Shown: positions 2,377 to 23,145, counted from the stretch's first letter. The stretch is DNA of 64,000 bases from an uncultured Thermoanaerobaculia bacterium (GCA_964440565.1 CAYTTB010000001.1:29361-93360); one strand, 5' to 3'. Notes: generated by a model not told the origin, from the sequence alone. A program made the numbers and translations.

Positions 2377-3653
2377 GGCGGGATGATACCCAGGAGGCGG
2401 GCCAGCGCCAGGGCGAGGAGGCCCCCGACGGCGGTGTCGGCGAGGTTGGTCCCGTGCTTGCTGGCCGGCCCGAGGCGGGGAAGCACCCCCTCGACCAGCA
2501 TCGCCGCGAACCCCGCCGCGGCCACCGCGGCCCCCCCCGCGGGCGGGAGCGCCCCCGTCGCCGCCGCCGCCCCGCCCACCACCGCCGCGCCCACGAGCGC
2601 CGCCACGGTCCCGGGTCCCGACACCGCACCCGGGGTCCCCGGGGGAACCGGATCGAGCCGCGGCAGCGTGTACGCCCGCCGCCCGAGGACCTTCCCCACC
2701 TCCGAGCCCAGCGTGTCGGCGAGGGCGGCGGCGAGGCTCCCGGCCACGAGGAGCGCGCCCACCGCCGAGCCCGGGTAGAGCCCGGCGAGCGCCGCCCCCA
2801 CCCCGGCGAGCGTGCCGTTGGCGGCCACGTGCGCGGCGCCGCGCCGGCACTCGTCCTCGAGCCCCCGCCGCCGCTTCTCGCCCCGGCGGAGCCGGGTGGC
2901 CGCCGTGCCGGTGGCCAGGAACAGCCACAGCAGCAGGTACGCCCGCCAGCCGCCGAGCCCCAGCGTCGCGGTGCCCAGCGCCCAGGCCGCCGCCACCCCG
3001 GCGGGCTCGAGCAGGCGGACCGCGAGCGCCGCGGCCGCGACGGCGGCGTTGATCGCGGCCGCGACACCCACCGCCGCGGCCGTGACGGCGGGAGGGCCGC
3101 CGGCGGCGAGCGCGGGCAGCAGGACCGCCGCACCGACGAGCGGCGGCAGGACGTTGTCGTCCAGCCCGTGCGGGACGGACTCCACCACCGCCGCCACCGC
3201 CACCGCGAGGACCAGCGCCGGCAGCGGCCGCCACCCGGAGACCGTACCGGGCCCGGCCACCCAGGCGAGCAGCGCGATCCCCAGCGCGCCCCCGCCCAGC
3301 GCGTAGCCGGCGAGGCCCTCCCACGTCTTGTCGGGGTTCCAGGGCAGCGGCCGGCGGCCGAGCGACATCCCCGCGATCCCGGCGAGCGCATCGCCCCCGG
3401 CGAGCAGTCCCCACCCGAACGCGGCCACGCCGAGGCCGCCCGCCGCCGGCGGGAGGTGGAACAGGAGCACGAGGGCCAGCACGACCAGCGGGTAGACGAG
3501 CACGCCCCGGTCGCTCGCCCCCTCCCGCGCGCTCGCCAGCCGGTGGCCCACGAGGCGGGGCAGCAGGAGGAGGTTGAAGGCGAAGGCGGCGAGGGCGCAC
3601 GCCGCTGCCTGCGGCCAGGTGAGCCAGCGCAGGAGCAGCGCGAAGGCGGCCAT
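2373..3653 (-). CDS. Polytopic membrane protein: CTP-dependent polyprenol kinase-like domain fused to a DUF92/TMEM19 (VTE6-like) domain
   Basis: Tail of ORF 2373..4577 from the ATG at 3653 (426 aa). The N-terminal ~190 aa carry GGDALAGIAGMSLGRRPLPWNPDKTWEG, a signature of the dolichol kinase / phytol kinase / CdsA superfamily. The C-terminal ~230 aa carry DUF92-like motifs RRGAAHVAANG, ALADTLGSEVG and PGTPGAVSGPGT. Confidence 0.65.
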   Translation of the reverse strand: MAAFALLLRWLTWPQAAACALAAFAFNLLLLPRLVGHRLASAREGASDRGVLVYPLVVLALVLLFHLPPAAGGLGVAAFGWGLLAGGDALAGIAGMSLGRRPLPWNPDKTWEGLAGYALGGGALGIALLAWVAGPGTVSGWRPLPALVLAVAVAAVVESVPHGLDDNVLPPLVGAAVLLPALAAGGPPAVTAAAVGVAAAINAAVAAAALAVRLLEPAGVAAAWALGTATLGLGGWRAYLLLWLFLATGTAATRLRRGEKRRRGLEDECRRGAAHVAANGTLAGVGAALAGLYPGSAVGALLVAGSLAAALADTLGSEVGKVLGRRAYTLPRLDPVPPGTPGAVSGPGTVAALVGAAVVGGAAAATGALPPAGGAAVAAAGFAAMLVEGVLPRLGPASKHGTNLADTAVGGLLALALARLLGIIPP

Positions 3654-4663: not shown

Positions 4664-5505
4664 CGCGCGGCCTCCAGGTAGCGGCGCAGCGCGTCCCGCC
4701 ATGGCGGCATCCGGCGGCCCAGGATCGCCGCGAGGCGCGAGGTGTCCAGCGCGGAGCTCGCCGGGCGTGGCGCCGGCCGGTGGAGCTGGGCGGTGGTGAT
4801 GGGCCGCACCGGGACCCCCGCGCCCAGCTCCTCGACGATGGCCTCCGCGAACCCGTGCCAGGTGGTGAAACCCTCGTTCACCGCGTGCACCACCCCCCGC
4901 GCTCCGGCGGCGACCAGGTCCAGGATCGCCTCGGCGAGGTCGGCGGCGTAGGTGGGGCTGCCCCGCTGGTCCGCCACCACCCGGAGCTCCCCGACGCCCC
5001 GCGCGATCTGGCGGCGGATCGCCTCCACGAAGTTGCGCCCCCCGACGCCGTACAGCCACGCGGTGCGTACCACGAGGTGGTCGGGGCAGGCGGCGGCGCG
5101 CCGCTCCCCCTCGAGCTTGCTGCGCCCGTACGCTCCCAGCGGCGCCGGGGGATCCTCCTCGCGGTACGGGCGGGAGAGCTCCCCGGAGAACACGTAGTCG
5201 GTGGAGAGCTGCACCAGCAGCGCGCCGGCCTCGGTGCAGGCCGCCGCCAGATGCCCCACCGCGATGCCGTTGACCTCGAGCGCCCGTCCGGGCTCGGCCT
5301 CGGCGCCGTCCACGTCGGTGTAGGCGGCGCAGTTGATCACCGCCTCCGGCCGGACCGTCCGGACCGCCGCGTGCACCGCCGCCGGGTCCGTGATGTCGAG
5401 CTCCGGCAGGTCCGGCGCCGTCACCGGGATCCCGCGCGAGGCGGCGGCGACCTGGAGCGCACGCCCCAGCTGCCCGCGGCCACCGGTCACCAGGAGCCCC
5501 GGCAT
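4660..5505 (-). CDS. rmlD: dTDP-4-dehydrorhamnose reductase family protein (RmlD-like)
   Basis: ORF 4660..5505, 281 aa. It has the Rossmann motif LLVTGGRGQLG plus STDYVFSG and YGRSKLEGE. No rmlA/B/C genes are nearby. Confidence 0.8.
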   Translation of the reverse strand: MPGLLVTGGRGQLGRALQVAAASRGIPVTAPDLPELDITDPAAVHAAVRTVRPEAVINCAAYTDVDGAEAEPGRALEVNGIAVGHLAAACTEAGALLVQLSTDYVFSGELSRPYREEDPPAPLGAYGRSKLEGERRAAACPDHLVVRTAWLYGVGGRNFVEAIRRQIARGVGELRVVADQRGSPTYAADLAEAILDLVAAGARGVVHAVNEGFTTWHGFAEAIVEELGAGVPVRPITTAQLHRPAPRPASSALDTSRLAAILGRRMPPWRDALRRYLEAAR

Positions 5506-12087: not shown

Positions 12088-13149
12088 CTACTCCCCGGGC
12101 TCGGGGCCGTCAAGGCGGCCGCGCGCGTGGCGCTCGAGCGCCAGGCCGAGCAGCCGGTCCACGAGCTCCGGGTAGGCCAGCCCCTCGAGCTCCCACAGGC
12201 GCGGGAACATCGAGATCGGGGTGAACCCGGGAATGGTGTTGACCTCGTTGACCAGGAAGGCACCGGTGCCGCGCTCCAGGAACAGGTCCACCCGCGCCAT
12301 CCCCTCGCAGCCCAGCACCCGGTACGCCGCCAGCGCCAGCTCCCGCGCCCGCTCCGCCTGGGCGGGCTCCAGCGGCGCCGGCGCCAGCAGCTGGCAGGCG
12401 TCGTCGAGGTACTTGTCGGCGTAGTCGTAGAACTCGTGCCCCGGCACCACCTCGCCCGGAACCGCCGCCGCGGGCTCCTCGTTGCCCAGCACCGCCACCT
12501 CGATCTCGCGCGCGTCCACCCCGCGCTCCACCACCGCCAGCCGGCCGTGAGCGAGCGCGGCCTCGATGGCCGCCGGGAGCTCCTCGGGCGCGTGCACCTT
12601 GGAGATCCCCACCGACGACCCGAGGCGGGCCGGCTTGACGAACAGGGGCAGCGGCAGCTGCTGGCAGGCGGCGAGCGCCGCGTCCGGGTCCTCCTCCCAC
12701 CGCCACGCCGGGACCTCCACCCACTCGGTCACGGGCAGCCCCGCCTGCTCGAGCAGCCGCTTGGCGAGCGCCTTGTCCATGCACACCGCCGAGGCCGCCA
12801 CGCCGCACCCCACGTAGGGCAGGTCCAGCACCTCGAACAGGCCCTGGACCGTGCCGTCCTCGCCGAAGGGGCCGTGGAGGACCGGGAACGCCACCTCCAG
12901 CGAGCCGTCCAGCAGCCGCGGCGCCAGCGCGGCCTCTCCCCGGAACGCCACCACCCGGTCCGGCCTGTCGCCGGAGCGCTCCAGCACCTCGCGCGACGTC
13001 GCCGCATCGGCCCACAGGCCCCGCCGGTCGATGGCCAGGGGCACCACCTCGTGCCCGCGTTCGGCCAGCGCCGCCGCGACGGCGCGGGCCGAGACCACGC
13101 TCACCTCGTGCTCGCCGGAGCGGCCACCGAAGACGAGCCCGACCCGCAT
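12088..13149 (-). CDS. ddl: D-alanine--D-alanine ligase
   Basis: ORF 12088..13149, 353 aa. The N-terminus is MRVGLVFGGRSGEHEVSVVSA, and ATP-grasp motifs LFVKPARLGSSVGISKV and EVNTIPGFT are present. Confidence 0.92.
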   Translation of the reverse strand: MRVGLVFGGRSGEHEVSVVSARAVAAALAERGHEVVPLAIDRRGLWADAATSREVLERSGDRPDRVVAFRGEAALAPRLLDGSLEVAFPVLHGPFGEDGTVQGLFEVLDLPYVGCGVAASAVCMDKALAKRLLEQAGLPVTEWVEVPAWRWEEDPDAALAACQQLPLPLFVKPARLGSSVGISKVHAPEELPAAIEAALAHGRLAVVERGVDAREIEVAVLGNEEPAAAVPGEVVPGHEFYDYADKYLDDACQLLAPAPLEPAQAERARELALAAYRVLGCEGMARVDLFLERGTGAFLVNEVNTIPGFTPISMFPRLWELEGLAYPELVDRLLGLALERHARGRLDGPEPGE

Positions 13150-13150
13150 C

Positions 13151-13474
13151 TCAGTCGGTGGTGGGCCCGCCGAACAGCGCCCCCACCAGGCGCCTGAGGG
13201 TCCCCGGCTCGGACCCGGCGATCACCTTCTCCACCTCGCCCCTGTCGAAGAACATCCCGCCGCAGGCGAAGCAGGCGTCCACCATCACCCCCCGGTACTC
13301 CACCTCCTCGAGCTCCAGCCCGCACTTGGGACACCGCATCCAGTGGAGCTCCCGGAGCCGCTGCCGCTCGGCCTCCGCCATCTTTCGGGCGTGTTCCTCG
13401 CGCATCCGGCGCAGGCGCTCCAGCTCCTGGCGCTTGAAGAACTCCTCCTCCTTCTCGCTCGGTTTCTGGATCAT
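13151..13474 (-). CDS. Zinc-ribbon protein with coiled-coil N-terminus (zf-TFIIB-like)
   Basis: ORF 13151..13474, 107 aa. A charged coiled-coil half is followed by CPKC...CFAC and FFDRGE. GGGAGG lies upstream. The stop is 1 nt from the ddl start. Confidence 0.7.
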   Translation of the reverse strand: MIQKPSEKEEEFFKRQELERLRRMREEHARKMAEAERQRLRELHWMRCPKCGLELEEVEYRGVMVDACFACGGMFFDRGEVEKVIAGSEPGTLRRLVGALFGGPTTD

Positions 13475-13512
13475 CGGCTGCCTCCCGCGGTGATTCTACC
13501 GGAGGGTGGCGG

Positions 13513-14709
13513 GTGGGATACGATCTCCCCGTGACGCGGGTGCGCACCGGCCTCGACCGCCTGGTGGCCGATCCGGTCCTCCTGGCCGGGCGGCGGTGGG
13601 CGCTGCTCGCCAACCAGGCCGCGGTGACCGCGGGGCTCGAGCCCGCCCGGGCCGCGCTCGCCGCCGTGGCGGGCCCTCCCGAGGTCCTCTTCGCCCCCGA
13701 GCACGGCCTCGACGGGGTGGCGCAGGACATGGAGGCGGTCGCCGACGAGGCCGACCCCCTCACCGGGGTGCCGGTGCGCTCGCTGTACGGGAGCGACGCG
13801 GGGAGCCTCGCCCCCGAACCCGGCGAGCTCGAGGGGCTCGACGTCCTGGTGGTGGACCTGCCCGACATCGGGAGCCGGTACTACACCTTCGCCGCCACGA
13901 TGGACCTGGCCATGGGCGCGGCGTCCGCGGCCGGGGTGGAGGTGCTGGTGCTCGACCGGCCGAACCCGATCACCGGGCGCCACCGCGAGGGCGGGCTGGT
14001 GCGGGAGGGGTTCGCCTCGTTCGTGGGGCGGGTCCCGGTCCCGGCGCGGCACGGCCTCACCCTGGGCGAGATCGCCCTCCTCCTGCACCGCGAGCGCCAC
14101 TCCGGCCTCGACCTCACCGTCCTCGCCTGCGAGGGGTGGCGGCGGGGGATGTGGTGGGAGGCGACGGGGCTGCCCTGGGTGCCGCCGAGCCCCAACATGC
14201 CGACGCCCGAGACCGCGCTGCTGTACCCGGGGCTGTGCCTGGTGGAGGGGACCGAGCTCTCCGAGGGGCGCGGCACCACCCGGCCGTTCCACCTGGTGGG
14301 GGCGCCGGGGATCGACCCGTTCCGCCTCGTGGAGGCGCTGCGGGACCTCGGTCTGCCCGGTGCCGGGTTCCGGCCCGCGCGGTTCCGGCCGATGTTCGGC
14401 AAGCACGCGGGGCGGGTGTGCGGCGGGGTCGAGCTCTTCGTGCTCCACCGCGAGGCGATCCGGCCGGTGGAGCTGGGCCTGCGGCTGCTGGCCACGATCC
14501 ACGACCTGTTCCCCGAGGCGTTTCGCTGGCGGGAGCGGCCGTACGAGTTCGTCGCCGACGTCCCCGCCATCGACCTCCTCACCGGCTCGGACGAGGCGCG
14601 CCGCCGCATCGACGCGGGCGAGCCGCTGGAGCCGCTGCTCGCGGCCTGGCGCGAGGAGGTCGCCGCCTTCGAGTCCCGCCTCGAGGGGGTGCTGCTCTAC
14701 CGGAAGTGA
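13513..14709 (+). CDS. DUF1343 family protein (exo-beta-N-acetylmuramidase NamZ family)
   Basis: ORF 13513..14709 with a GTG start after GGAGGGTGG. Motifs LFAPEHG, LVVDLPDIGSRYYTF and LDRPNPITG are present. Confidence 0.8.
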   Translation: MGYDLPVTRVRTGLDRLVADPVLLAGRRWALLANQAAVTAGLEPARAALAAVAGPPEVLFAPEHGLDGVAQDMEAVADEADPLTGVPVRSLYGSDAGSLAPEPGELEGLDVLVVDLPDIGSRYYTFAATMDLAMGAASAAGVEVLVLDRPNPITGRHREGGLVREGFASFVGRVPVPARHGLTLGEIALLLHRERHSGLDLTVLACEGWRRGMWWEATGLPWVPPSPNMPTPETALLYPGLCLVEGTELSEGRGTTRPFHLVGAPGIDPFRLVEALRDLGLPGAGFRPARFRPMFGKHAGRVCGGVELFVLHREAIRPVELGLRLLATIHDLFPEAFRWRERPYEFVADVPAIDLLTGSDEARRRIDAGEPLEPLLAAWREEVAAFESRLEGVLLYRK

Positions 14710-14717
14710 GGGCGGGG

Positions 14718-14813
14718 CTCACCGCAACCGGCGCAGCCGCCGGACCTCCTCCACGATGCGGGCGGCCGCCCGGTCCACCTCGGCCCCGGTGGTGAACCGG
14801 CCGACGGCGAGGC
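14718..14813 (-). pseudogene. Orphan 3' fragment (last ~31 codons plus stop) of a cysteine desulfurase gene
   Basis: By hand alignment, 90/96 nt are identical to 15952..16047. It would encode ...LAVGRFTTGAEVDRAAARIVEEVRRLRRLR*, against ...LAVGRFTTEAEVDRAAARIVEEVRRLRRLG* in the intact gene. It lies 9 nt from the DUF1343 stop. Confidence 0.7.
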
Positions 14814-14996
14814 CCGGAGCCCGGCGCACGGGCGATCCGCCGCCGACACGGTGGGGGGACGACGCGGGCCGGGCCCCGCTCCGTGGCAGGTGCAGGGGCC
14901 CTCACGGCGAGACCTCTTCGCGTCCGGGCATGAGCGGCGCGGGTCGAGCGAGGTCGGCGTCGCATCCGCCGGGCCGTCGCCGCCCCCGGAGCGCGC

Positions 14997-15035
14997 GGGG
15001 GTTGACACCGGGTGGGGGGGGTTGACCTGCGGTGG
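14997..15035 (+). repeat. Tandem 20-bp direct repeat containing TTGAC (possible operator or promoter element)
   Basis: GGGGGTTGACACCGGGTGG (14997-15015) is followed by GGGGGTTGACCTGCGGTGG (15017-15035). The pair ends 27 nt upstream of the ATG at 15062. Confidence 0.6.
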
Positions 15036-15061
15036 TGAACACGGCCGGAAGGAGGTCTACC

Positions 15062-15427
15062 ATGAGGCGAGGGATCGGGGTGATGGTCGTCGCCGCGCTG
15101 GCGTTGGCGATGACGCGTGCGGGAGCCTCAAGGGCTCAGGAGCTTCCGCACCTGCGGAACCTTGCGGTCGGGGTCTGGCAGCTGGGTGACGGAGGCGGAT
15201 ACGTGGTCGTCGGCGTCGAGGGCCACCGCTGGCTCCTCGAGCACCTTCGCCTCGAGCGGAGCAGGGCAGCGGCCGCGTGCGAGGACGGAGCGCGTGCGTC
15301 CTGCGCGGGCCAGGTCGCATCGTCCGAGCGCGGACGCGGCCGCGCCGGTCACCGGCTCCGCGGACTGCCGGTAGGCGTCCCCGGTGCGGACCGCGCACCC
15401 GGGGGCGAGGCAAGGAGGCGGCCATGA
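15062..15427 (+). CDS. Hypothetical secreted protein
   Basis: The in-frame ATG at 15062 is preceded by GGAAGGAGG. The signal peptide is MRRGIGVMVVAALALAMTRAGASRAQE. The C-terminal half is Arg/Gly-rich and of low complexity. The stop overlaps the next ATG (ATGA). Confidence 0.4.
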   Translation: MRRGIGVMVVAALALAMTRAGASRAQELPHLRNLAVGVWQLGDGGGYVVVGVEGHRWLLEHLRLERSRAAAACEDGARASCAGQVASSERGRGRAGHRLRGLPVGVPGADRAPGGEARRRP

Positions 15428-15822
15428 GACCGGGGGCACGCTGGTGGGTGGTCGGGCTCGCGGTGGTCGGGCCCGCGCTGATGATGGCAGGTTGCAACGA
15501 CTCCGAGCTGCCCACGGAGCCGGAGGCGCCCACCGCCCAGGTCACGGTGGGGGTGGAGGCGACCTGCGCGGGGGTGGTGCCCGGGGTGGACGTGCTGCTC
15601 GACGGGGAGCCCGTGGGTCACGTCCGTGCGGGGGACACCCTCGCCTTCGTGGTCACGGGCGCGGGCGAGCACGAGCTGCTGCTGCGCGCCGCCGACGGGC
15701 GCGAGTGGAGGGTGACCCTCGGCATGATCGCCGCCGGCGGCGGCGGCGGGAGGCGGTCCGGCTTCTGGGTGAGCCTCGCCTGCACCGCCTCCGGCGCACG
15801 GGTCACCGTGAGCGAGGTCTGA
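15424..15822 (+). CDS. Lipoprotein with PEGA-like beta domain
   Basis: The in-frame ATG at 15424 is preceded by AAGGAGG. The lipobox is LMMAGC. VDVLLDGEPVGHVRAGDTLAFVVTGAGEHELLL resembles a PEGA domain. Confidence 0.65.
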   Translation: MRPGARWWVVGLAVVGPALMMAGCNDSELPTEPEAPTAQVTVGVEATCAGVVPGVDVLLDGEPVGHVRAGDTLAFVVTGAGEHELLLRAADGREWRVTLGMIAAGGGGGRRSGFWVSLACTASGARVTVSEV

Positions 15823-15951
15823 CCGGCGCCCGCCGGCGCGGCGTCGGGCGGCTCGCGGGGCGGGAGGGTCGCCGGCGGTCGCGGCGCCCGCGGACCGGCG
15901 AGGGTACCCAGGCGTCACGTGCCCGGCGGGGACCGCCCGCCGCCAGCCGGC

Positions 15952-16047
15952 CTCACCCGAGCCGGCGCAGCCGCCGGACCTCCTCCACGATGCGGGCGGC
16001 CGCCCGGTCCACCTCGGCCTCGGTGGTGAAGCGGCCCACGGCGAGGC
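15952..16047 (-). repeat. Direct-repeat partner of 14718..14813 (functional 3' end of the cysteine desulfurase gene)
   Basis: See 14718..14813. The two copies are 1234 bp apart in the same orientation. Confidence 0.7.
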
Positions 16048-17110
16048 GCAGCGAGGCGCGGGCGAGGTCCGGGGGGAGCCCCATCGCCCGCAGCACCGGT
16101 GACGGCTCGGGGCTTCCCGCCGAGCAGGCGGCGCCGGAGCTCACCGCGAGGTCGGGGAGCGAGGCGAGCAGGGCCTCGCCGTCGACCCCCTCGAAGGCGA
16201 GGTTGGTGACGCCGGGCAGGCGCGCCCCGGGGTCTCCGGAGACGCTGACGCCGTCGAGCTCGCCGAGGATCGCGCCCTCGAGACGGTCGCGCAGCCGCGC
16301 GAGGCGGGCCGCCTCCTCGGCACGCGCCGCCACCGCCAGCTCCACCGCGACCGCGAAGCCCACGATGCCGGGGACGTTGAGCGTCCCCGGGCGCAGCCCC
16401 CCCTCCTGGCCGCCGCCGTCGAGCAGCGGCTCGGGCCGCACCGCGAGACCGCGCCGGATCCAGAGCGCCCCCACCCCCTTCGGCCCGTACAGCTTGTGCG
16501 CCGACAGCGCCACCGTGTCGGCACCGAGGGCGTCCAGCTCGAGCGGGACCTTCCCCGCCGCCTGGGCGGCGTCGCAGTGCAGCAGCGCCCCGTGCCGGTG
16601 GGCGAGCTCCGCCGCCTCCCGCACCGGCTGCAGCGTGCCGGTCTCGTTGTTGGCGGCCATCAGCGCCGCCAGCACGGCGCCGTCGGCGAGCGCCGCCTCG
16701 AGCTCGTCGAGGCGGACCCGGCCGCGCCGGTCCACCCCCACCACGGTGAGCTCGAACCCCTCGCGGGCGAGGCGCCGCAGCGGCTCCAGCACCGAGGCGT
16801 GCTCGGTGGCCTGGGTCACGATGCGGCGCCCCCGCGCGGCGAGGGCGCGGGCGAGCCCCTTGAGGGCGAGGTTGTTGGCCTCGGTGGCCCCGGAGGTGAA
16901 CACGATCTCGCTGGCGGCGCCGGCGCCGAGCGCGCGGGCGATCCGCCGGCGCGCGTCCTCCACCGCCAGCGCCGCGTCGCGGCCGGGGCGGTGGGTGCGG
17001 CTCGAGGGGTTGGCGAACCGCTCGCCGAAGTACGGCAGCATCGCCTCCACCACCCGCGGGTCGCACGGGGTGGTGGCCGCGTGGTCCAGGTAGATCGGCC
17101 CGTTCTCCAC
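15953..17110 (-). CDS. Cysteine desulfurase (NifS/IscS family, class V aminotransferase)
   Basis: Tail of ORF 15953..17356. The GTG at 17110 gives (M)ENGPIYLDHAATTP. The PLP-Lys motif SAHKLYGPKG and the active-site motif SSGAACS are present. Confidence 0.88.
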   Translation of the reverse strand: MENGPIYLDHAATTPCDPRVVEAMLPYFGERFANPSSRTHRPGRDAALAVEDARRRIARALGAGAASEIVFTSGATEANNLALKGLARALAARGRRIVTQATEHASVLEPLRRLAREGFELTVVGVDRRGRVRLDELEAALADGAVLAALMAANNETGTLQPVREAAELAHRHGALLHCDAAQAAGKVPLELDALGADTVALSAHKLYGPKGVGALWIRRGLAVRPEPLLDGGGQEGGLRPGTLNVPGIVGFAVAVELAVAARAEEAARLARLRDRLEGAILGELDGVSVSGDPGARLPGVTNLAFEGVDGEALLASLPDLAVSSGAACSAGSPEPSPVLRAMGLPPDLARASLRLAVGRFTTEAEVDRAAARIVEEVRRLRRLG

Positions 17111-17144
17111 GTCCGCGATTCTACGGCCTTCCCCGGCCCGTGGG

Positions 17145-19179
17145 GTGACCTCCCGCCGTGGTACAACGGTGCCCGTGCACGGGAGTGCGGACGGCGCCGG
17201 GGCCTCGCCGCGCCGGTGGCCGTGGGTGGTGGGCGTCGTGCTGCTCGCCCTCGCCCTGCGGCTGTGCGGTGTGGGGGCGCTGTCGCCGTGGCTCGACGAG
17301 GTGTTCCAGCTCGAGCGCGTCGCGGCGCCCATCGCCGGGCTCTGGCGGGGGAGCACGGCGTTCCCCGATCACCCACCGGGCTCGGCGCTGCTGATGCGGG
17401 CCCTCGCGACGCTGGGCGCCGGCGAGGCCCAGCTGCGCGTCGCCTCGGTGGCGGCCGCCGTGGCGGCGCTTCCCTTGCTCATGATCTGGGTGGAGGCGCG
17501 TTTCGACCGGCGCGTGGCCGCCCTCGTGGGCGTCCTGGGTGCGGTCTCGCCCTACCACCTGCGCTACTCGCAGGAGCTGCGACCGTACCCGTACCTGCTG
17601 CTCGCCGCCGCGGCGACGCTGGTGCTCGCGGACCGCCTGCTTCGGGGGCGGGGCGGCAGATGGACCGTTCCGGGCCTCGCGGCGGCCTTCGCCGGCGGCC
17701 TCTGGACCCACGACACCTTCCCTGTGGTCGTGGTACCCATCGCGGCCGCGGCGTGTGCGCGCCGAGGGGAGCTGGCACCCGGGTGGCCGCGCCGGCTGGC
17801 GGCGAGCGGGGCGCTCGCCCTCGCGCTCTACCTCCCGCTGCTGCCCCGCCTCGTGCGGCAGGCAGCCGCCGCGTCGTCGCCCACGGCCGAGACGTGGGGT
17901 TGGTGGTTTCTCTCCCGACGCTGGGCTTTCCTGACCGTGGCGGGCCGCGAGGGGATCCCGTCCGGCTGGGGTGCCGCCGCCTTCGCGGCAGCGGCGGCGC
18001 TCGGCGCGGGCGTGGCGGCGGCCCGGTGGCGACGGGGGGGGGCTCGAGGTGCTCACAGGCCTCCTCGCCGGGATCGCCGGGGTGGAGAGCGTCTTCCACT
18101 TCGTCTTCCGGCGCTGGACGGCGGGCCGCTACGACATCGTGGGCTGGCCGTTCCTGGTGATCCTCGTGGCGCTCGGCGTGGACGCCCTCTGGCGCCGGGC
18201 GCGCGCCGCGGGGGCGCTGGCCGCGACGGCACTGGTGACCTCGAGCCTCGTGGGCGTCGTCGCCTACTGGAACGAAGGGCGCCCGCGGTGGGACCGGATG
18301 GCGGAGGCAGTGAGGGCGGTCCGGCGCGCGGGCGAGCCGGTGCTCGCGGAGAGCCTGTTCTGCGAGCGACCGCTCTCCCGCCTGCTCGCCGGCGACGGCG
18401 TGGAGGTGATCCGGCTCGACGGCGACCTCGGGCGCCTGTGGCGGGTGTGGCCGCGGGACCGCTCCGCACTCCTGGTGCGGTGTGGGGATCCCCAGTCGGC
18501 GCCCCTGCGCCGCGTCGCGGCCCGGCTGCCGCGGATCGTGGCGCACGCCCCGCATGGGTGGCTGTACCGGCTGCCGCCGCGCTCGTGGGCGCGGCGTCGC
18601 TCGGATGGCTCGATCGGCGTGGCCGGCGCCTCCCCCGCCGGCGCGTGGCCGGAGCCGAGCCTTTCGCTCCTCCCGGTCCGGGTGGCGTGCCCCGAGGCGT
18701 TCTGCCTCGGCCGGTGGCTCGCCCGACCCCGCCCGAGCCCGGTCGAGGTTCCCGCGAGGCTCGAGTTCGACGGTCCCGAGACGCGACGCGCCCTGCTGGG
18801 GGCCTGGGGCGGGGACGAGCGGACGCGCGACGGCACCACCTTCGCCTGGGCGACCTCGCTGGAGGTCGGCGTGGCGTTCCACATCGCCCGGCCGCGTCCG
18901 CTGCACCTCGCCCTCAGACTGTGGCCGTACGCCGGGACGCTCCCCGGCCAGGCGGTGCGGGGCCTGGTGGGCGGCCACGAGCTGGGATGGGTGCGCCTCG
19001 GAGCAGGAGCGCACGAGCTGGGCGCGCCCATCCCGGCGGGCGCGCTGCGGCCGGGCACCAACCTGCTCGTTCTCCAGTTCGCGCGGGCGGTGGCCCCGGC
19101 CGAGGTGCGTCCGGGATCGCGCGACCGCCGGCCGCTCGCCGCCGCCCTCGACTGGATCGAGATCGCCCCCGCGGAGTGA
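17145..19179 (+). pseudogene. GT-C fold membrane glycosyltransferase (family 39 / ArnT-PMT-like) split by a frameshift at a G9 tract
   Basis: The N-terminal polytopic part reads in the frame of ORF 17145 (LDEVFQLE loop motif, many TM helices) up to about 18033. The sensible sequence continues in the frame of ORF 17971 (LEVLTGLLAGIAGVESVFHFVF... to DRRPLAAALDWIEIAPAE*). Each frame becomes Arg/Gly/Pro junk on the other side of the tract. Confidence 0.7.
18034..18042 (+). repeat. G9 homopolymer at the frameshift point
   Basis: The sequence reads gac ggggggggg ctc. An 8-G version would join the two frames into one ORF of about 677 aa. Confidence 0.9.
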
Positions 19180-19188
19180 GCGCCGGCG
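19124..19188 (+). repeat. 65-bp perfect direct repeat, copy 1 (3' end plus stop of the glycosyltransferase gene)
   Basis: Identical to 20571..20635 at an offset of 1447 bp. Identity extends to 19117 with one mismatch. It includes the TGA at 19177-19179 and 9 nt beyond. Confidence 0.9.
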
Positions 19189-19491
19189 GGCGGGCGGACG
19201 GCCCCGTGGGGAGGTGGCGAAGCGTACCACGTCGTGGCTGGTCGGGGCGGGGATCGACACGGACGGAGGGACCCACGGTCGCGTCACACCTCCGCGACCC
19301 ACCTGTACGCCGCCGTCTCCGAGCTGCTTGTGGTCGAGCGGCGGGACATCTCCACCACGGAGACCATCCCCACCCGGTGGATCGAGCCCGTGACGAGGCC
19401 TTCGAGCGGCCCTGGCGGTCCGCCGGCCCCGGGGGCACGGCGGTCCTCCGGGGCCGCGTTCCTGTTCCGGGTCGCGCCACGGATGGTTCGA

Positions 19492-19520
19492 TGGACACGC
19501 GCGGCACGTGGTGATACACT
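19492..19520 (+). promoter_or_regulatory. Putative sigma70-type promoter of the antitoxin/toxin pair
   Basis: TGGACA (19492-19497), a 17-nt spacer, then TACACT (19515-19520) preceded by TG. The region is locally AT-richer. GGAGGT lies 6 nt before the ATG at 19557. Confidence 0.4.
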
Positions 19521-19556
19521 GTACTTACGAGAGACGCCGATGCCGGAGGTGTCGTC

Positions 19557-19784
19557 ATGGTCAAGCGCCTGACGAGGCACGGGAACAGCCTGGCGCTCGT
19601 CATCGACCGGCCGATACTGGAGCTGCTCAAGATCGACGCCGACACGCCGCTCGAGATCTCCACGGACGGGCGGGTCCTGATCGTCTCTCCGGTCCGTGAC
19701 GCCGAGGACCGGAAGAGGCTCGAGAAGGCCCTGGAGAAGGTGAACCGGAGATACGGTCGTGCCCTCGAGCGCCTCGCACAGTGA
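19557..19784 (+). CDS. AbrB/MazE/SpoVT-fold antitoxin
   Basis: ORF 19557..19784, 75 aa. The motif RHGNSLALVIDRPILELLKIDADTPLEISTDGRVLIVSP is a swapped-hairpin barrel signature. The ORF lies immediately upstream of, and overlaps, doc. Confidence 0.8.
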   Translation: MVKRLTRHGNSLALVIDRPILELLKIDADTPLEISTDGRVLIVSPVRDAEDRKRLEKALEKVNRRYGRALERLAQ

Positions 19785-20172
19785 CCGTGTCCCCCGCTTC
19801 CTGAATCTCGGCGAGGTGCTCTTCATCCACCGCGACCAGATCGAGCGCTACGGCGGCGAGCCCGGTATCCGGGACGTCGGTCTGCTGCAGTCGGCGCTCG
19901 CCATGCCGGCGGCGGGGTTCGGGGGCCGGTTCCTGCACGGCGACCTGTTCGAGATGGCCGCGGCCTACCTCTTCCACATCACCAGGAACCACCCCTTCGT
20001 GGACGGGAACAAGCGGACCGGTGCGGCGTGCGCGCTCGTCTTCCTCGAACTCAACGGGATCGAGATCGATGCCAGCGAGGACGAGCTGGTGGGGATGGTC
20101 ACCGCCGTGGCCGAAGGCAGGGCGGAGAAGGGGGCCATCGCCGATTTCTTCCGCAGGCACGCTCACGGGTGA
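19759..20172 (+). CDS. doc: Doc (death-on-curing) Fic-family toxin
   Basis: ORF 19759..20172 with Fic/Doc motif HPFVDGNKRTG and an N-terminal LNLGEVLFIHRDQIERYGG. The GTG start overlaps the antitoxin by 26 nt, and the exact start is uncertain. Confidence 0.85.
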   Translation: MPSSASHSDRVPRFLNLGEVLFIHRDQIERYGGEPGIRDVGLLQSALAMPAAGFGGRFLHGDLFEMAAAYLFHITRNHPFVDGNKRTGAACALVFLELNGIEIDASEDELVGMVTAVAEGRAEKGAIADFFRRHAHG

Positions 20173-20200
20173 CCCCCCTCGCAATCGCCAGGACTGGTGT

Positions 20201-20220
20201 GCGCGTGTCGTCACACGCGT
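20201..20220 (+). terminator. Hairpin downstream of doc
   Basis: CGCGTGT-cgtc-ACACGCG is a 7-bp stem about 30 nt after the doc stop. It has no U-tract. Confidence 0.3.
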
Positions 20221-20570
20221 CGTCCCGAGAGACATTCTCGAAGCCCTGCAACGCTCCCCGTCCGGGCCCCCGGGTTCGACAGTTTCGGAACCGGAGTGGG
20301 CAGGACTCTCGGGGTGCGATGTCGAGCGACCTGAGGTTTCCATGGCTGGATCGCGCGCCGTCGTGACGATCAGGCCTCACGGCGTCGCCTCGCGACGGGG
20401 ACGGTGCGCACGGGTGTCACACCGGTCTCTCCCGAGCAGCGGCGCCTCTTCGAGGCGCTCGCCGCCGACCGACCCACCCGCAAGCGGCAGGAGGCTGCGG
20501 CGTGGGCGGGAGCTCCCGGAAGCCGATCCAGACGTGGGTGCGAGAGTGTCGAACTCGGGTAGTTCGCGCC

Positions 20571-20635
20571 ACCGCCGGCCGCTCGCCGCCGCCCTCGACT
20601 GGATCGAGATCGCCCCCGCGGAGTGAGCGCCGGCG
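20571..20635 (+). repeat. 65-bp perfect direct repeat, copy 2 (orphan glycosyltransferase 3' end)
   Basis: Identical to 19124..19188. It would encode ...RRPLAAALDWIEIAPAE* but has no upstream gene body. Confidence 0.9.
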
Positions 20636-20648
20636 CCGGGTGCGGGGA

Positions 20649-20698
20649 CCACGGCGGGGCTCCCCGCGGGGAGGTGGGATCGCGGGGTCCCGCCGTGG
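20649..20698. terminator. Compound GC-rich hairpin between the orphan repeat and the ftsZ stop
   Basis: The outer stem is CCACGGCGGG/CCCGCCGTGG (10 bp) and the inner stem is CCCCGCG/CGCGGGG (7 bp). It lies 25 nt downstream of the ftsZ stop on the minus strand. Confidence 0.4.
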
Positions 20699-20722
20699 CC
20701 CGGAGGCGGTCCCGGTCGCCGC

Positions 20723-21922
20723 TCAGTCGAGCTGGTTCCTCAGGATCGCCGGGACCTCGTACTCCTCCTTGGGCGCTCCGGTGCCGTGGATCCCGTACCA
20801 CGGGTCGCTGGGCTCCAGGAACGGGCTGCGCGGCCGCGCGCCCTCCTCGGCCGGCCGCTCGGCCTCGGCCTCGGCGGTGCGCCGCTCGGTCGCCTCGCCA
20901 CCGAAGCCGGTGGCGATCACCGTCACCCGGAACTCGCCCTCGAGGTCGGGGTCCACCACCGCGCCGAACAGGACGATGGCGTCGCGGTCGGCGCTCTCGG
21001 TGATGATCTCCGCCGCCTCGTTGACCTCGGTGAGCGTCATGTCGGCGCCGCCGGTGAGGTTGATGAGGATCCCGCGCGCGCCGGCGATGGACGTCTCCTC
21101 CAGCAGCGGCGAGGCGATCGCCTGCTGGGCCGCCTCCACCGCCCGGTGCTCGCCGGAGGCCGCGCCCACCCCCATGATGGCGTGGCCCATGTCCTTCATC
21201 ACCGTGCGCACGTCGGCGAAGTCGCGGTTGATCAGCCCGGGCTTGGTGATGATGTCGGCGATCCCCTGCACCGCCTGACGGAGCACGTCGTCGGCGATGC
21301 GGAGCGCGTCGGTGAACGACGTGGAGCGGTCCACGAACTTGAGCAGCCGCTCGTTGGGGATCGTGATCAGGGTGTCCACGTGCGCCTCGAGCTGGGCGAT
21401 CCCCTCCTCCGCCACCCGGCGGCGGCGCGTCCCCTCGAAGGGGAACGGCTTGGTCACCACCGCCACCGTGAGGGCGTCGGCCTGCGAGGCGATCTGGGCG
21501 ATCACCGGCGCCGCCCCGGTGCCGGTGCCCCCGCCCATGCCGCAGGTGACGAACACCATGTCGGCGCCCGTGACCAGCTCGTGCAGCCGGTCGGTGTCCT
21601 CCACCGCCGCCCGGCGGCCGATGTCGGGGTCGGCGCCGGCGCCGAGGCCTCGCGTCACCTCCGGGCCCAGCTGCACCTTCACCGGCGCCGTGCACTGCTC
21701 GAGCGCCTGGGCGTCGGTGTTGACGGCGATGAACTCCACCCCCGCCACCCCCGCCGCCATCATCCGGTTGATCGAGTTGCAGCCGCCGCCCCCCACGCCG
21801 ATCACCTTGATCACCGCCGGCGAGGACGCCTCCTCCAGCTGGATCCGCGGGCCCTCGCCAGGCGCCGGGGAGCCCCGCTCCCCCCGTGGGTCGTCGTGCC
21901 TCGAGTCGAGCCTGATGTTCAC
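20723..21922 (-). CDS. ftsZ: Cell division protein FtsZ
   Basis: Tail of ORF 20723..23044. The GTG at 21922 follows GGGAGGTGG and overlaps the ftsA stop (GTGA). Motifs [17 protein letters not shown] and [12 protein letters not shown] are present. Length 399 aa. Confidence 0.92.
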
Positions 21923-23145
21923 GGTCCACCTCCCATCTCGAACAGCTCTCCCAGGGCCTGCCGGAGCCATCCCAGCGGCCCGCTCCCCCGTCTCCGGTCT
22001 CCCTGCGACCGCCGCCACGCGGCCTGCAGGCGCACCAGCCCCACGGCCACCGCCCACTCGGGTCCGGCGACCGGCTCCACCTCGCCCTCGATCCCGCGCG
22101 GCGCGCCGAGCCGGGCGCGCGCCCCGAAGATCGCCTCCGCCAGCTCGCCGAGCCCGGGCAGCAGCGCGCCGCCGCCGGTGAGCACCACGCCCGCGCGGGC
22201 GACGCCGTCCAGCTGCTCCTCGGCGAGCTGCCGGTGCACGGCCACGAGCACCTCCTTGGCCCGTGCCGCCAGCGTCTCGGTCACCACCTGGAGCGGCACG
22301 ACCCGCTGCCCCTCGCCGCCCAGCGCCGGCACCTCCACCGCCGTCCCGTCGGCTCCGGCGAGGCCGTGGCGGCGCTTCAGCTCCTCGGCGGCGTGGCTCG
22401 AGGTGCGCAGGATCACCGCGAGGTCGTTGGTGAAGCTGCGCCCCCCCACCGGGAAGCAGCCGGTGGCCACCACCGCCTCCTCGGCGTAGAGCGCCCACTC
22501 GGTGCCGCCGTGGCCGATGTCCACCAGCAGGCAGCCGAGCTCGCGCTCGTCGGGGGTGAGCGCGGCCGCGGCGGCGGCGAGCGGCTCGAAGTAGAGGCGC
22601 TCCGCCACGATCCCGGCCTGGTTCACCGCCTTGAGCACGCTCTCGGCATGGGTGCGGTGGGCGTAGAGCACGTGGGCGTGGGCGTCGAGGCGGGTGGCGG
22701 GCATCCCCACCGGCCGCCTCACCCCGGGCTGGCCGTCGAGCACGAACTCCCTCGGGATCACGTCGAGGACGGTGTAGTCCGAGGGCTGGGCGAACCGGGT
22801 GCACCGCTCCAGGGCCCGGTCGCGGTCGTCGTCGCTGACCAGCCCGCGCGCCCCGGTCACGGGCACCGAGGAGCGGGCGTTGAGGCCGCGCACCGCCGGG
22901 CCGCCGAGCCCCACGACCGCGCGCTCCACCGGGGCCGACGCCATCGCCTCCGCCTCCTCGGCCGCGAGCCGCACGGCCTCCGTCACCGCCTCGAGGTCCG
23001 CCACGATCCCCTTGGGCGCGCCGGCGTGGCGGGCACGGCCGCACCCCAGGACCACCGTCCGGTGATCGTCCGCGGCCTCCGCGACCACCACCGAGACCGA
23101 GGCGGCGCCCACGTCGATCCCCACCAGCGGACCGGGGTCCTTCAT
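21919..23145 (-). CDS. ftsA: Cell division protein FtsA
   Basis: Tail of ORF 21919..23238 from the ATG at 23145. Actin-fold motifs [15 protein letters not shown] and [12 protein letters not shown] are present. The ATG overlaps the ftsQ stop (ATGA). Confidence 0.9.

Follow-up and report, generated by a model that had tools for sequence, protein, structure and literature searches.

Two integrase-free insertions with long target duplications at neighbouring gene 3′ ends of an uncultured Thermoanaerobaculia bacterium

Two small islets within the 64-kb stretch of DNA analysed here (the window) are new examples of a described type of event—insertion with long target duplication (Nobusato et al. 2000, Gene 259:99; Furuta, Abe and Kobayashi 2010, NAR, PMC2853133)—and do not constitute a novel class of mobile element. 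Both show an insertion, a duplication of the end of the adjoining gene, and a lack of mobility genes. We propose, with about an even chance of being right, that they are two independent insertions made by the host's own recombination, without an element-encoded or otherwise dedicated recombinase. The initial annotation had described the architecture as a gene, its in-gene repeat copy, the cargo, and a displaced copy next to the original convergent neighbour, and this is confirmed. It also knew of no named element type of this kind, which does not hold: insertion with long target duplication matches, and a footprint of Rhs/T6SS loci has been described as well (PMC5361080).

The islets, which lie to the left and right of the cysteine desulfurase gene, are defined by two direct repeats, R1 and R2, which were recovered where they had been annotated. 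R1 spans 14712–14813 (copy a) and 15946–16047 (copy b), with 94/102 positions identical over 102 nt and a spacing of 1234. R2 spans 19117–19188 (copy a) and 20564–20635 (copy b), with 71/72 positions identical over 72 nt and a spacing of 1447, and can be extended with gaps to 19217 and 20677—giving copies of 101 and 114 nt, respectively. These are the only long direct repeats of high identity in the window, whose other repeat families are compositionally simple and at most 84% identical. Unrelated loci (1.43 Mb and 0.55 Mb, identical blastn filter) contain about 4 comparable pairs per Mb; hence, about 0.26 pairs are expected per 64 kb, against two observed, both within 6 kb. Each repeat brackets one small insert and duplicates the last 21–32 codons of a gene with the stop codon; the duplicated segment measures ~100 nt in each islet and reaches about 7–51 nt past the stop codon. 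In the gene-joined copy, the frame is complete to the stop codon; next to the former convergent neighbour, the second copy persists as a relic. Orphan and in-gene ends are 92–99% identical, and both repeats stop abruptly at either end. Within the repeats, identity is unevenly distributed. R1 has a perfect 58-nt core with mismatches clustered at both edges (P = 0.007 versus uniform decay), and in R2, a perfect core of 65 nt gives way to a diverged stretch with gaps, with one difference in the 72-nt part and several indels in the adjoining ~45 nt. The differences in R1 are G/C, G/C, G/C, C/G, A/G, C/T, C/G, and G/C.

Islet 1 sits at the 3′ end of a gene for a cysteine desulfurase, a class-V aminotransferase of 385 aa (15953–17110, minus strand; Pfam Aminotran_5 E 9e-82; gene call in contig L001). 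R1 copy b, on the minus strand, forms the in-gene 3′ end with the stop codon at 15953–15955. R1 copy a, on the same strand, is the displaced end, whose in-frame translation ends in ...GLAVGRFTTGAEVDRAAARIVEEVRRLRRLR* with its own stop at 14719–14721—separated by 9 nt from the NamZ stop. The NamZ gene (13513–14709, plus strand), which encodes an exo-beta-N-acetylmuramidase (Pfam NamZ_N E 1e-67, NamZ_C E 4e-49), is the original convergent neighbour of the desulfurase. The unique insert between the copies (14814–15945, plus strand; 1132 bp) carries two ORFans on the plus strand, the first of which has an ATGA overlap with the second. The upstream one (121 aa, 15062–15427) has a signal-peptide-like N-terminus and a weaker coding signal (GC3 = 0.80); a search of 1.84 billion representatives matched it to nothing but an incomplete copy of itself at 98% identity. 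The downstream one (132 aa, 15424–15822; GC3 0.94) has a lipobox-like N-terminus (LMMAGC) and a Pfam BiPBP_C match (E 6e-6) slightly under the curated cut-off; the homologue search returned nothing besides itself. The homologues of the cargo proteins are, thus, limited to copies from the same organism, and searches of the insert in Pfam, PHROGs, and a plasmid collection gave no match. GC and codon usage of this cargo are host-like, which would fit a related donor.

Islet 2 sits at the 3′ end of a gene for a PMT_2-type glycosyltransferase (17145–19179, plus strand; Pfam PMT_2). This gene bears a +1 frameshift in a G9 run at 18034–18042, and its two reading frames match contiguous parts of one ORF in L086. 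The annotated view that each islet leaves a housekeeping-type gene intact does not hold for the glycosyltransferase, which is lineage-specific and frameshifted. R2 copy a (19117–19217, plus strand) is the in-gene end and comprises the stop codon at 19177–19179 plus 38 nt downstream; its junction is complex, with several indels followed by a 16-nt patch re-copied from the ftsZ terminator hairpin. R2 copy b (20564–20677, plus strand) is the displaced end with 51 nt downstream and terminates in the loop of that hairpin; its stop codon TGA reads CGA in both JGI contigs (position 20624). The ancestral ftsZ terminator hairpin (20636–20722, minus strand; fold z-score −4.2 on the ftsZ strand) is followed by ftsZ itself (20723–21922, minus strand; Pfam Tubulin, FtsZ_C), the original convergent neighbour of the glycosyltransferase. 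The unique insert runs from 19218, or from 19189, to 20563 (plus strand; 1346–1375 bp), and consists of a 270-bp left flank, a conserved toxin–antitoxin core, and a 388-bp right flank. GC drops to 66–70% in this islet, and its spurious ORFs have no family match.

The toxin–antitoxin core (19488–20175, plus strand) contains a predicted sigma-70-like promoter at 19492–19520 (promoter scan), an antitoxin at 19557–19784, and a Doc toxin at 19759–20172. The toxin matches Pfam Fic (E 8e-19) and TIGR01550 DOC_P1 (71 bits, cut-off 38.65), and its motif HPFVDGNKR fits the HxFx(D/N)(A/G)NKR of the Fic fold; the antitoxin has weak matches to doc_partner and MazE (Pfam MazE_antitoxin). Judged by these matches, the gene pair is a predicted type II toxin–antitoxin system of the Doc (Fic) family. 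The core shares 84–88% nucleotide identity with L096, L097, and L099, whose flanks are unrelated, and the organisms sharing it span 48–69% GC. The core, hence, moves independently of the islet 2 flanks and travels in arbitrary fragments, not as a bounded element.

The locus belongs to a conserved core region adjoining the cell-division (dcw) gene cluster, and the whole window consists of core genes. In four of four relatives (L088, L092, L094, L095), the convergent genes for the desulfurase and NamZ overlap by ~10 nt with no islet 1 between them, ftsZ directly precedes the desulfurase, 157 nt upstream, and the glycosyltransferase is absent at this locus. Synteny is otherwise perfect over the surrounding ~25 kb. 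Hence, islet 1, the glycosyltransferase, and islet 2 would be lineage-specific insertions in syntenic core DNA—with the provision that the empty sites come from distant relatives (68% protein identity) and not from same-species strains. The single site of L095 aligns to both R1 copies and the NamZ end, and R1 copy a is colinear with the NamZ end as in L095. The comparison across relatives that had been suggested thus places the orphan copy of islet 1, by alignment, at the ancestral position. For islet 2, with the glycosyltransferase absent in the relatives, an empty site can be proposed from the ftsZ side only, where 20658–20695 is 90% identical to the ftsZ–desulfurase spacer of L088–L091.

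Neither islet resembles an element that carries its own means of movement. No integrase, transposase, phage gene, or remnant of these was found in the islet ORFs at permissive thresholds (Pfam, PHROGs, NCBIfam), and no recombinase anywhere in the 64-kb window—in agreement with the annotated absence of an integrase, including the decayed remnants that had been proposed as a check. Terminal inverted repeats are lacking at the islets, where scores stay at shuffle level. The islets have no ends in common, and the two repeat cores are unrelated. A discrete class of miniature cassettes, as had been suggested, is therefore not borne out: shared ends and terminal inverted repeats are missing, the toxin–antitoxin core recurs with different flanks, and homologues of the islet 1 cargo come from the same organism only. 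A transposon, IS, or MITE does not fit, given the lack of terminal inverted repeats and duplications of 72–114 nt instead of <15 bp; neither does an integron cassette, as the insert ends show no inverted-repeat structure and no Rfam match and the window contains no integrase. A diversity-generating retroelement was rejected since the R1 differences are not confined to template adenines and no reverse transcriptase was found. C-terminal displacement of a polymorphic toxin was rejected on the identity between the two ends and on the host genes, a desulfurase and a glycosyltransferase. A site-specific element or CIME is judged unlikely, no integrase having been found in the islets or the 64 kb, although one acting in trans might lie elsewhere in the genome.

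Furuta et al. 2010 described insertions with long target duplication as inserts <20 kb between flanking direct repeats >30 bp, with no mobility gene in or beside the insert; the empty site in a related genome has the repeat only once, and the cargo encodes restriction and modification. Both islets agree in size, in repeat length, and in the absence of mobility genes. Their cargo—the Doc/antitoxin pair and the two ORFans—departs from restriction–modification, although the literature on these insertions also admits ‘other DNAs’ (PMC3457768). The precedents likewise lack an integrase or transposase, some of their repeats overlap a gene 3′ end, and their cargo is an addiction-type gene pair. Here, in contrast, the cargo comprises a Doc pair and ORFans for a putative secreted protein and a putative lipoprotein, two events flank one gene, and the empty sites stem from distant relatives. 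Rhs, CDI, and T6SS effector–immunity loci share the order of gene body, incoming 3′ end with cargo, and displaced old 3′ end downstream, again with no recombinase; a homologous anchor plus an illegitimate joint has been proposed for them, and the 3′-end displacement at Rhs/T6SS loci is attributed to homology-facilitated illegitimate recombination (PMC5361080; Jackson et al. 2009 cited there). What arrives there is another toxin domain together with its immunity gene, whereas the two ends of each islet have the same sequence and neither host gene encodes a polymorphic toxin. Integrative elements inserting at gene 3′ ends, and integrase-less CIMEs, also have terminal direct repeats and restore the 3′ end of the target by an element-borne copy; unlike these, the islets have no integrase in cis or in 64 kb, no conserved ends, and only 1.1–1.4 kb.

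Insertion-duplication, that is, Campbell-type integration of non-replicating circles, is used in pneumococcal mutagenesis. The reference for it is Prudhomme et al. 2002 (as cited in PMC2884548). As in the islets, a single crossover in a short homology leaves a direct repeat on either side of the insert; that procedure, however, belongs to the laboratory and uses hundreds of bp of homology, and circles that bear ~100 nt of a gene end have only a hypothetical source in nature.

For the proposed host recombination, incoming DNA from a related lineage would already bring its own version of the gene end, adjoining the cargo, and would recombine with the resident gene inside the 58–65-nt stretch of perfect identity. 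The exchange might be a Campbell-type single crossover of a circle, or might involve a linear fragment with one homologous and one illegitimate joint. The in-gene copy would then derive from the donor, and RecA-type recombination would be involved. Perfect cores with diverged edges, as seen in R1 and R2, are expected if pre-diverged sequences exchange within their longest identical block. Comparable footprints occur in L099, where a 203-nt repeat surrounds the same toxin–antitoxin family, and in L097, where a 144-nt repeat surrounds an ATPase gene. Of the two routes in the initial annotation, the Campbell-type or recombination-driven one is favoured, and site-specific attL/attR integration is less so, given the lack of a recombinase in the 64 kb and the unrelated cores. 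Several points speak against the proposal. The orphan copy in L099 is without the last 14 codons of the gene, which the simple Campbell model does not predict. Gene conversion after an in-situ duplication could also yield a perfect core with diverged edges, and 58–65 nt of homology is close to the shortest length at which RecA-dependent recombination is efficient—about 30 bp in E. coli (as cited in PMC2884548). In addition, template switching in break repair would account equally well for the complex junction of R2 copy a.

The latter reading belongs to an explanation in which both copies derive from resident sequence: a break at the inverted repeat between convergent genes would capture stray DNA, while ~100 nt of the gene-side flank would be re-synthesised by fill-in or template switching. 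Taken literally, the name ‘insertion with long target duplication’ describes this model (PMC2853133). Both outer breakpoints lie in hairpin loops—the R2 end at 20677 in the loop of the long ftsZ terminator and the R1 start at 14712 in that of a small stem formed by two convergent stop codons—and the 16-nt patch in R2 copy a as well as the similar lengths of the duplications (102 and 101–114 nt) point the same way. Neutral decay of an orphan would, however, not cluster the mismatches of R1 at its edges, nor leave one difference in the 72-nt part of R2 against several indels beside it, which makes an in-situ duplication a doubtful, if serious, candidate.

Attachment sites of integrative elements show a perfect core with imperfect flanks at a gene 3′ end, the gene being restored. 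Examples of the tRNA type are known (PMC2853133). The ~60-nt perfect cores, imperfect flanks, and restored gene 3′ ends of the islets have this classic look, and a site-specific tyrosine or serine recombinase acting in trans or since deleted might have left the repeats as attL/attR and the islets as CIME-like island remnants. The non-coding flanks of islet 2 would offer room for such a history, as codon-like periodicity at 19270–19450 could be a gene remnant. We consider it unlikely all the same: on top of the lack of integrase remnants in the islets and of a recombinase in the 64 kb, the unrelated cores would need two enzymes or one with relaxed specificity, other copies of the toxin–antitoxin core come without the islet 2 flanks, and losing an integrase twice while keeping both attachment sites and the cargo is unparsimonious.

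It is very improbable that the repeats arose as chimeric assemblies of strain variants, or from old tandem gene duplications with no relation to the inserts: although the sources are metagenome assemblies and one of them, L002, is interrupted within islet 1, identical junctions are present in two JGI metagenome contigs (L001, L002), a k-mer-based Logan unitig from a separate sequencing run (L005, window 14756–15991) covers islet 1 at both inner junctions, the inserts bear no relation to the genes next to them, and the repeats end sharply on both sides—the structure is no assembly artefact.

Once formed, such structures might behave as mobile cassettes without a recombinase of their own, which we regard as a long shot. 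Host recombination between the ~100-nt repeats would loop out a circle of cargo plus one gene-end copy, and one crossover at the same gene end could carry this circle into any related genome again; a toxin–antitoxin cargo would penalise loss. This penalty could explain why the Doc family is found inside long duplications in two unrelated genomes, that of the window and L099. If true, addiction modules and small secreted-protein genes would have an integrase-free route into core regions.

The two islets lie in a window whose GC content is ~77%. In order, ddl (12088–13149, minus strand), a zinc-ribbon gene (13151–13474, minus), and the gene of NamZ (13513–14709, plus) are followed by islet 1 (14814–15945), a class-V cysteine desulfurase gene (15953–17110, minus), a PMT_2-type glycosyltransferase gene (GT; 17145–19179, plus), islet 2 (19218–20563), and ftsZ (20723–21922, minus), with ftsA, ftsQ, and murC onward behind it. 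For the dcw genes from ftsA to mraY, identification relied on the gene calls of two JGI metagenome contigs of the same organism (L001 and L002). Among the 42 window genes outside ~29.8–36.1 kb that were tested against protein families, 39 encode ordinary core functions (RNase E/G, rml genes, LptD, GltX/GlnS, gap–pgk–tpi–secG, tig–clpP–clpX–lon, rho, and mqn genes), and three have no family match.

Each islet is bracketed by a direct repeat. R1 pairs 14712–14813 with 15946–16047 (102 nt, 94/102 identical, spacing 1234), and R2 pairs 19117–19188 with 20564–20635 (72 nt, 71/72 identical, spacing 1447). Gapped alignment lengthens R2 to 19217 and 20677, and a 16-mer in this extension, CCCCGYGGGGAGGTGG, occurs at only two sites in the window—those in the two R2 copies—versus 0.15 expected. 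A scan of the whole window returned no long, high-identity direct repeat besides these. In ~2 Mb of unrelated loci, the same repeat filter yields ~4 such pairs per Mb; the expectation for 64 kb is thus ~0.26, and two pairs within 6 kb are unusual. R1 copy b corresponds to the desulfurase gene's 31 terminal codons plus stop and is joined to the gene body, while copy a is displaced from it and reads GLAVGRFTTGAEVDRAAARIVEEVRRLRRLR in frame on the minus strand, followed by a stop codon 9 nt from that of NamZ. For R2, copy a forms the 20 terminal codons of GT together with its stop, and copy b is the orphan, adjoining the ftsZ terminator. The GT end is genuine, since it aligns end to end with the C terminus of a 35%-identical homologue. 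For annotation, the lesson is that such orphan gene ends are relics, not genes.

The repeats and inserts described in the initial annotation were confirmed at their coordinates and in independent assemblies, and the islet structure is not an artefact. L001 and L002, which stem from different samples, equal the window across the region except for position 20624, where the window bears a T and both contigs a C; the latter converts the orphan GT stop from TGA to CGA, as expected for a relic. Both inner junctions of islet 1 are spanned by a Logan unitig (L005, window 14756–15991), whose ends lie within R1 copy a and copy b. The remaining Logan unitigs end at precisely those points where a 58-nt exact repeat forces a k = 31 graph to branch; these breaks are hence expected and uninformative on empty-site variants.

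The ancestral state can be read from relatives, which were found by a protein homologue search followed by retrieval of the contigs encoding those proteins. Outside this organism, the closest desulfurase is 68% identical, and a scan of genome contigs with this protein gave homologues of 45–59% identity among the matches listed. In four relatives' assemblies (L088, L092, L094, and L095), the desulfurase and NamZ genes are convergent and overlap by ~10 nt, and three of the four have ftsZ at a distance of 157 nt upstream of the desulfurase gene. The order of the flanks corresponds gene for gene to the window—malic enzyme, CBS, CsgG, GTP cyclohydrolase, and epimerases on one side and the dcw genes on the other—with islet 1, GT, and islet 2 as the sole differences. 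On the DNA level, L095 matches both R1 copies (84% and 87%) and the NamZ end in a colinear fashion, and 20658–20695, just past R2 copy b, shares 90% identity with the ftsZ–desulfurase spacer of L088; this region folds as a long hairpin (z = −4.2). The empty site and the flank alignments hence place the orphan copy of islet 1 at its ancestral position and, judged from the ftsZ side, probably that of islet 2 too, with the in-gene copies on the insert side. The proposed architecture of gene, in-gene repeat, cargo, and displaced copy holds. Exact look-ups of the NamZ, antitoxin, and lipoprotein proteins for a same-species empty site returned the same organism only.

The accompanying interpretation stands only in part. 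GT had been regarded as a housekeeping-type gene that was kept intact, but it is absent from the locus in the relatives, and a +1 frameshift in a nine-G run (18034–18042) splits it into two frames, which match adjoining parts of one ORF in a homologue (L086). The run is identical in both JGI contigs, and the split gene could be a pseudogene or contain a slippage-prone, phase-variable tract. Scanning metagenome contigs with the C-terminal part of GT gave two matches only, at 35%.

The cargo differs between the islets. Islet 1 consists of two overlapping genes, encoding a 121-aa protein with a signal-peptide-like N terminus and a 132-aa protein with a lipobox-like N terminus and a BiPBP_C match below threshold. 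Both are ORFans, whose matches are copies from the same organism only, and the codon usage of the second gene is host-like (GC3 0.94). Islet 2 has a GC content of 66–68%, and its cargo, genes for a MazE/AbrB-type antitoxin and a Doc (Fic) toxin, follows the sole sigma-70-like promoter in 6.5 kb. Doc homologues at 84–91% identity are common in metagenomes, compared with at most 68% for the host desulfurase. The toxin–antitoxin core (~19488–20175) shows 84–88% DNA identity to copies in three contexts with GC contents of 48%, 60%, and 69%, and this homology ends at the promoter on one side and just past the stop codon on the other. The internal flanks of islet 2 (270 bp and 388 bp) are unique, with neither a family nor a plasmid match. 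Within the left flank, 19270–19450 displays a strong, coding-like three-base GC periodicity (0.9/0.62/0.55); its ORFs have no family match on either strand, and it may be a gene remnant from a previous host of the fragment. At 19759–19800, the window is one base short compared with the three other core copies, just after the canonical Doc start (GTG, 19787), so that only 5 codons can be read from there before a stop. An open Doc body is obtained only by starting further upstream, at a GTG within the antitoxin gene (19759) whose preceding bases are GGAGA instead of the GGAAA of the other copies. Judged from these reading frames, the toxin may be inactivated or re-initiated at the new start.

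That no recombinase is encoded was upheld for the islets and the tested window genes: integrases and transposases are lacking among all 42. Six-frame ORFs of all noncoding parts of both islets gave no match to Pfam, PHROGs, or NCBIfam at permissive thresholds, decayed integrase remnants included. Neither terminal inverted repeats nor shared ends or shared sequence between the islets were found, Rfam returned nothing in 13000–22000, the nearest tRNA gene lies at 44.4 kb, and distant blastn of both inserts against PLSDB gave no match. Membership tests also led to the rejection of three further candidates: a diversity-generating retroelement, an integron cassette, and a transposon.

The distribution of differences within the repeats is uneven. 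In R1, the eight differences fall at 14714, 14717, 14724, 14725, 14727, 14786, 14797, and 14803, leaving a perfect core of 58 nt (P = 0.007 under uniform placement); with four synonymous versus two nonsynonymous nucleotides, they are too few to separate a donor allele from neutral decay. In R2, the seventh base differs, followed by 65 perfect nucleotides, a stretch with several indels, and then the shared 16-mer. Outside both repeats, identity falls sharply. Given that the cores are perfect and their edges diverged, and that the cargo of islet 1 is host-like, we favor—at about an even chance—homologous recombination by the host with incoming DNA in which a copy of the gene end was already present. 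The recombination-driven option of the initial annotation holds. Incoming DNA would bring the gene-end copy next to its cargo and recombine with the resident gene end, either by a Campbell-type crossover or by one homologous and one illegitimate joint. The main rival, which we consider less likely, is an in situ duplication that would have arisen while a break at the inter-gene hairpin was being repaired. It fits the patchy R2 copy a junction and the positions of the outer breakpoints: the R2 outer breakpoint is located in the loop of the ftsZ terminator hairpin, and that of R1 in the loop of a small stem (GTGAG...CTCAC) made by the two convergent stop codons. An integrase that acted in trans or was lost is unparsimonious and improbable.

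The islets do not form a new, unnamed class of cassettes, as had been suggested, since a named precedent exists in the "insertion with long target duplication" of Kobayashi's group, first described for restriction–modification systems of H. pylori, subsequently in numerous phyla (PMC2853133), and reported also "for other DNAs" (PMC3457768). Shared with it are the small size of the insert, the lack of mobility genes, the long direct repeats, which for islet 1 are single copy at the empty site of distant relatives, and addiction-type cargo. The two islets add new members to a kind of insertion that is already known but mechanistically unsolved. Their order of gene, incoming end with cargo, and displaced old end also resembles the "displacement" seen in Rhs and T6SS loci, which was attributed to homology-facilitated illegitimate recombination (PMC5361080). 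Many small strain-specific bacterial inserts bear no mobility genes, and their entry route is poorly understood; insertions with long target duplication are mainly cataloged for restriction–modification systems. The footprint is now extended to a toxin–antitoxin pair and to ORFans with secretion-signal-like N termini, with both examples from an uncultured high-GC lineage and within the dcw/ftsZ neighborhood, which is among the most conserved regions of the bacterial chromosome. They provide two concrete clues: repeat cores that are perfect but have diverged edges, and outer breakpoints located in loops of hairpins that lie between convergent genes.

Similar footprints are seen elsewhere. In a different organism with ~69% GC (L099, also L100), a 203-nt segment present twice (768–970 and 2482–2684, 89% identical) brackets the same Doc/antitoxin family, at 88% nucleotide identity to the window core. 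The segment is the 3′ region of an adjacent 904-aa beta-helix gene; the orphan is without the last 14 codons, and tandem paralogues next door complicate the reading. In another context (L097/L098), a 144-nt segment present twice (3289–3432 and 5065–5208; 100% and 98.6% identical) surrounds a 1.6-kb insert with a 68-aa gene and an AAA_14/DUF4143 ATPase gene. The segment comprises the end of an HTH gene (3′) and the start of hsdM (5′). The insert is located between these two genes in a defense-type neighborhood and, being without a mobility gene, looks like another insertion with long target duplication. Flanking repeats occur in two of five contexts of close Doc homologues versus none of 69 viral-contig loci with distant ones; hence, the footprint recurs but is no rule for this toxin family.

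The ~40 nt behind the stops of the two in-gene copies are alike (15910–15955, minus, and 19177–19222, plus), sharing TGAG, GCCGGC, GGCGGGCGG, and CCCCG; the local score of 32 is in the top 0.1% of the window background, but not significant after multiple testing, as random windows reach 33, and the likeness may only be due to GC-rich hairpins that follow genes. The divergent start codons of the desulfurase gene and GT are just 34 nt apart (17111–17144), compared with the 157-nt ftsZ–desulfurase spacer of the relatives, and both promoters must therefore lie within neighboring coding sequence or inserted DNA.
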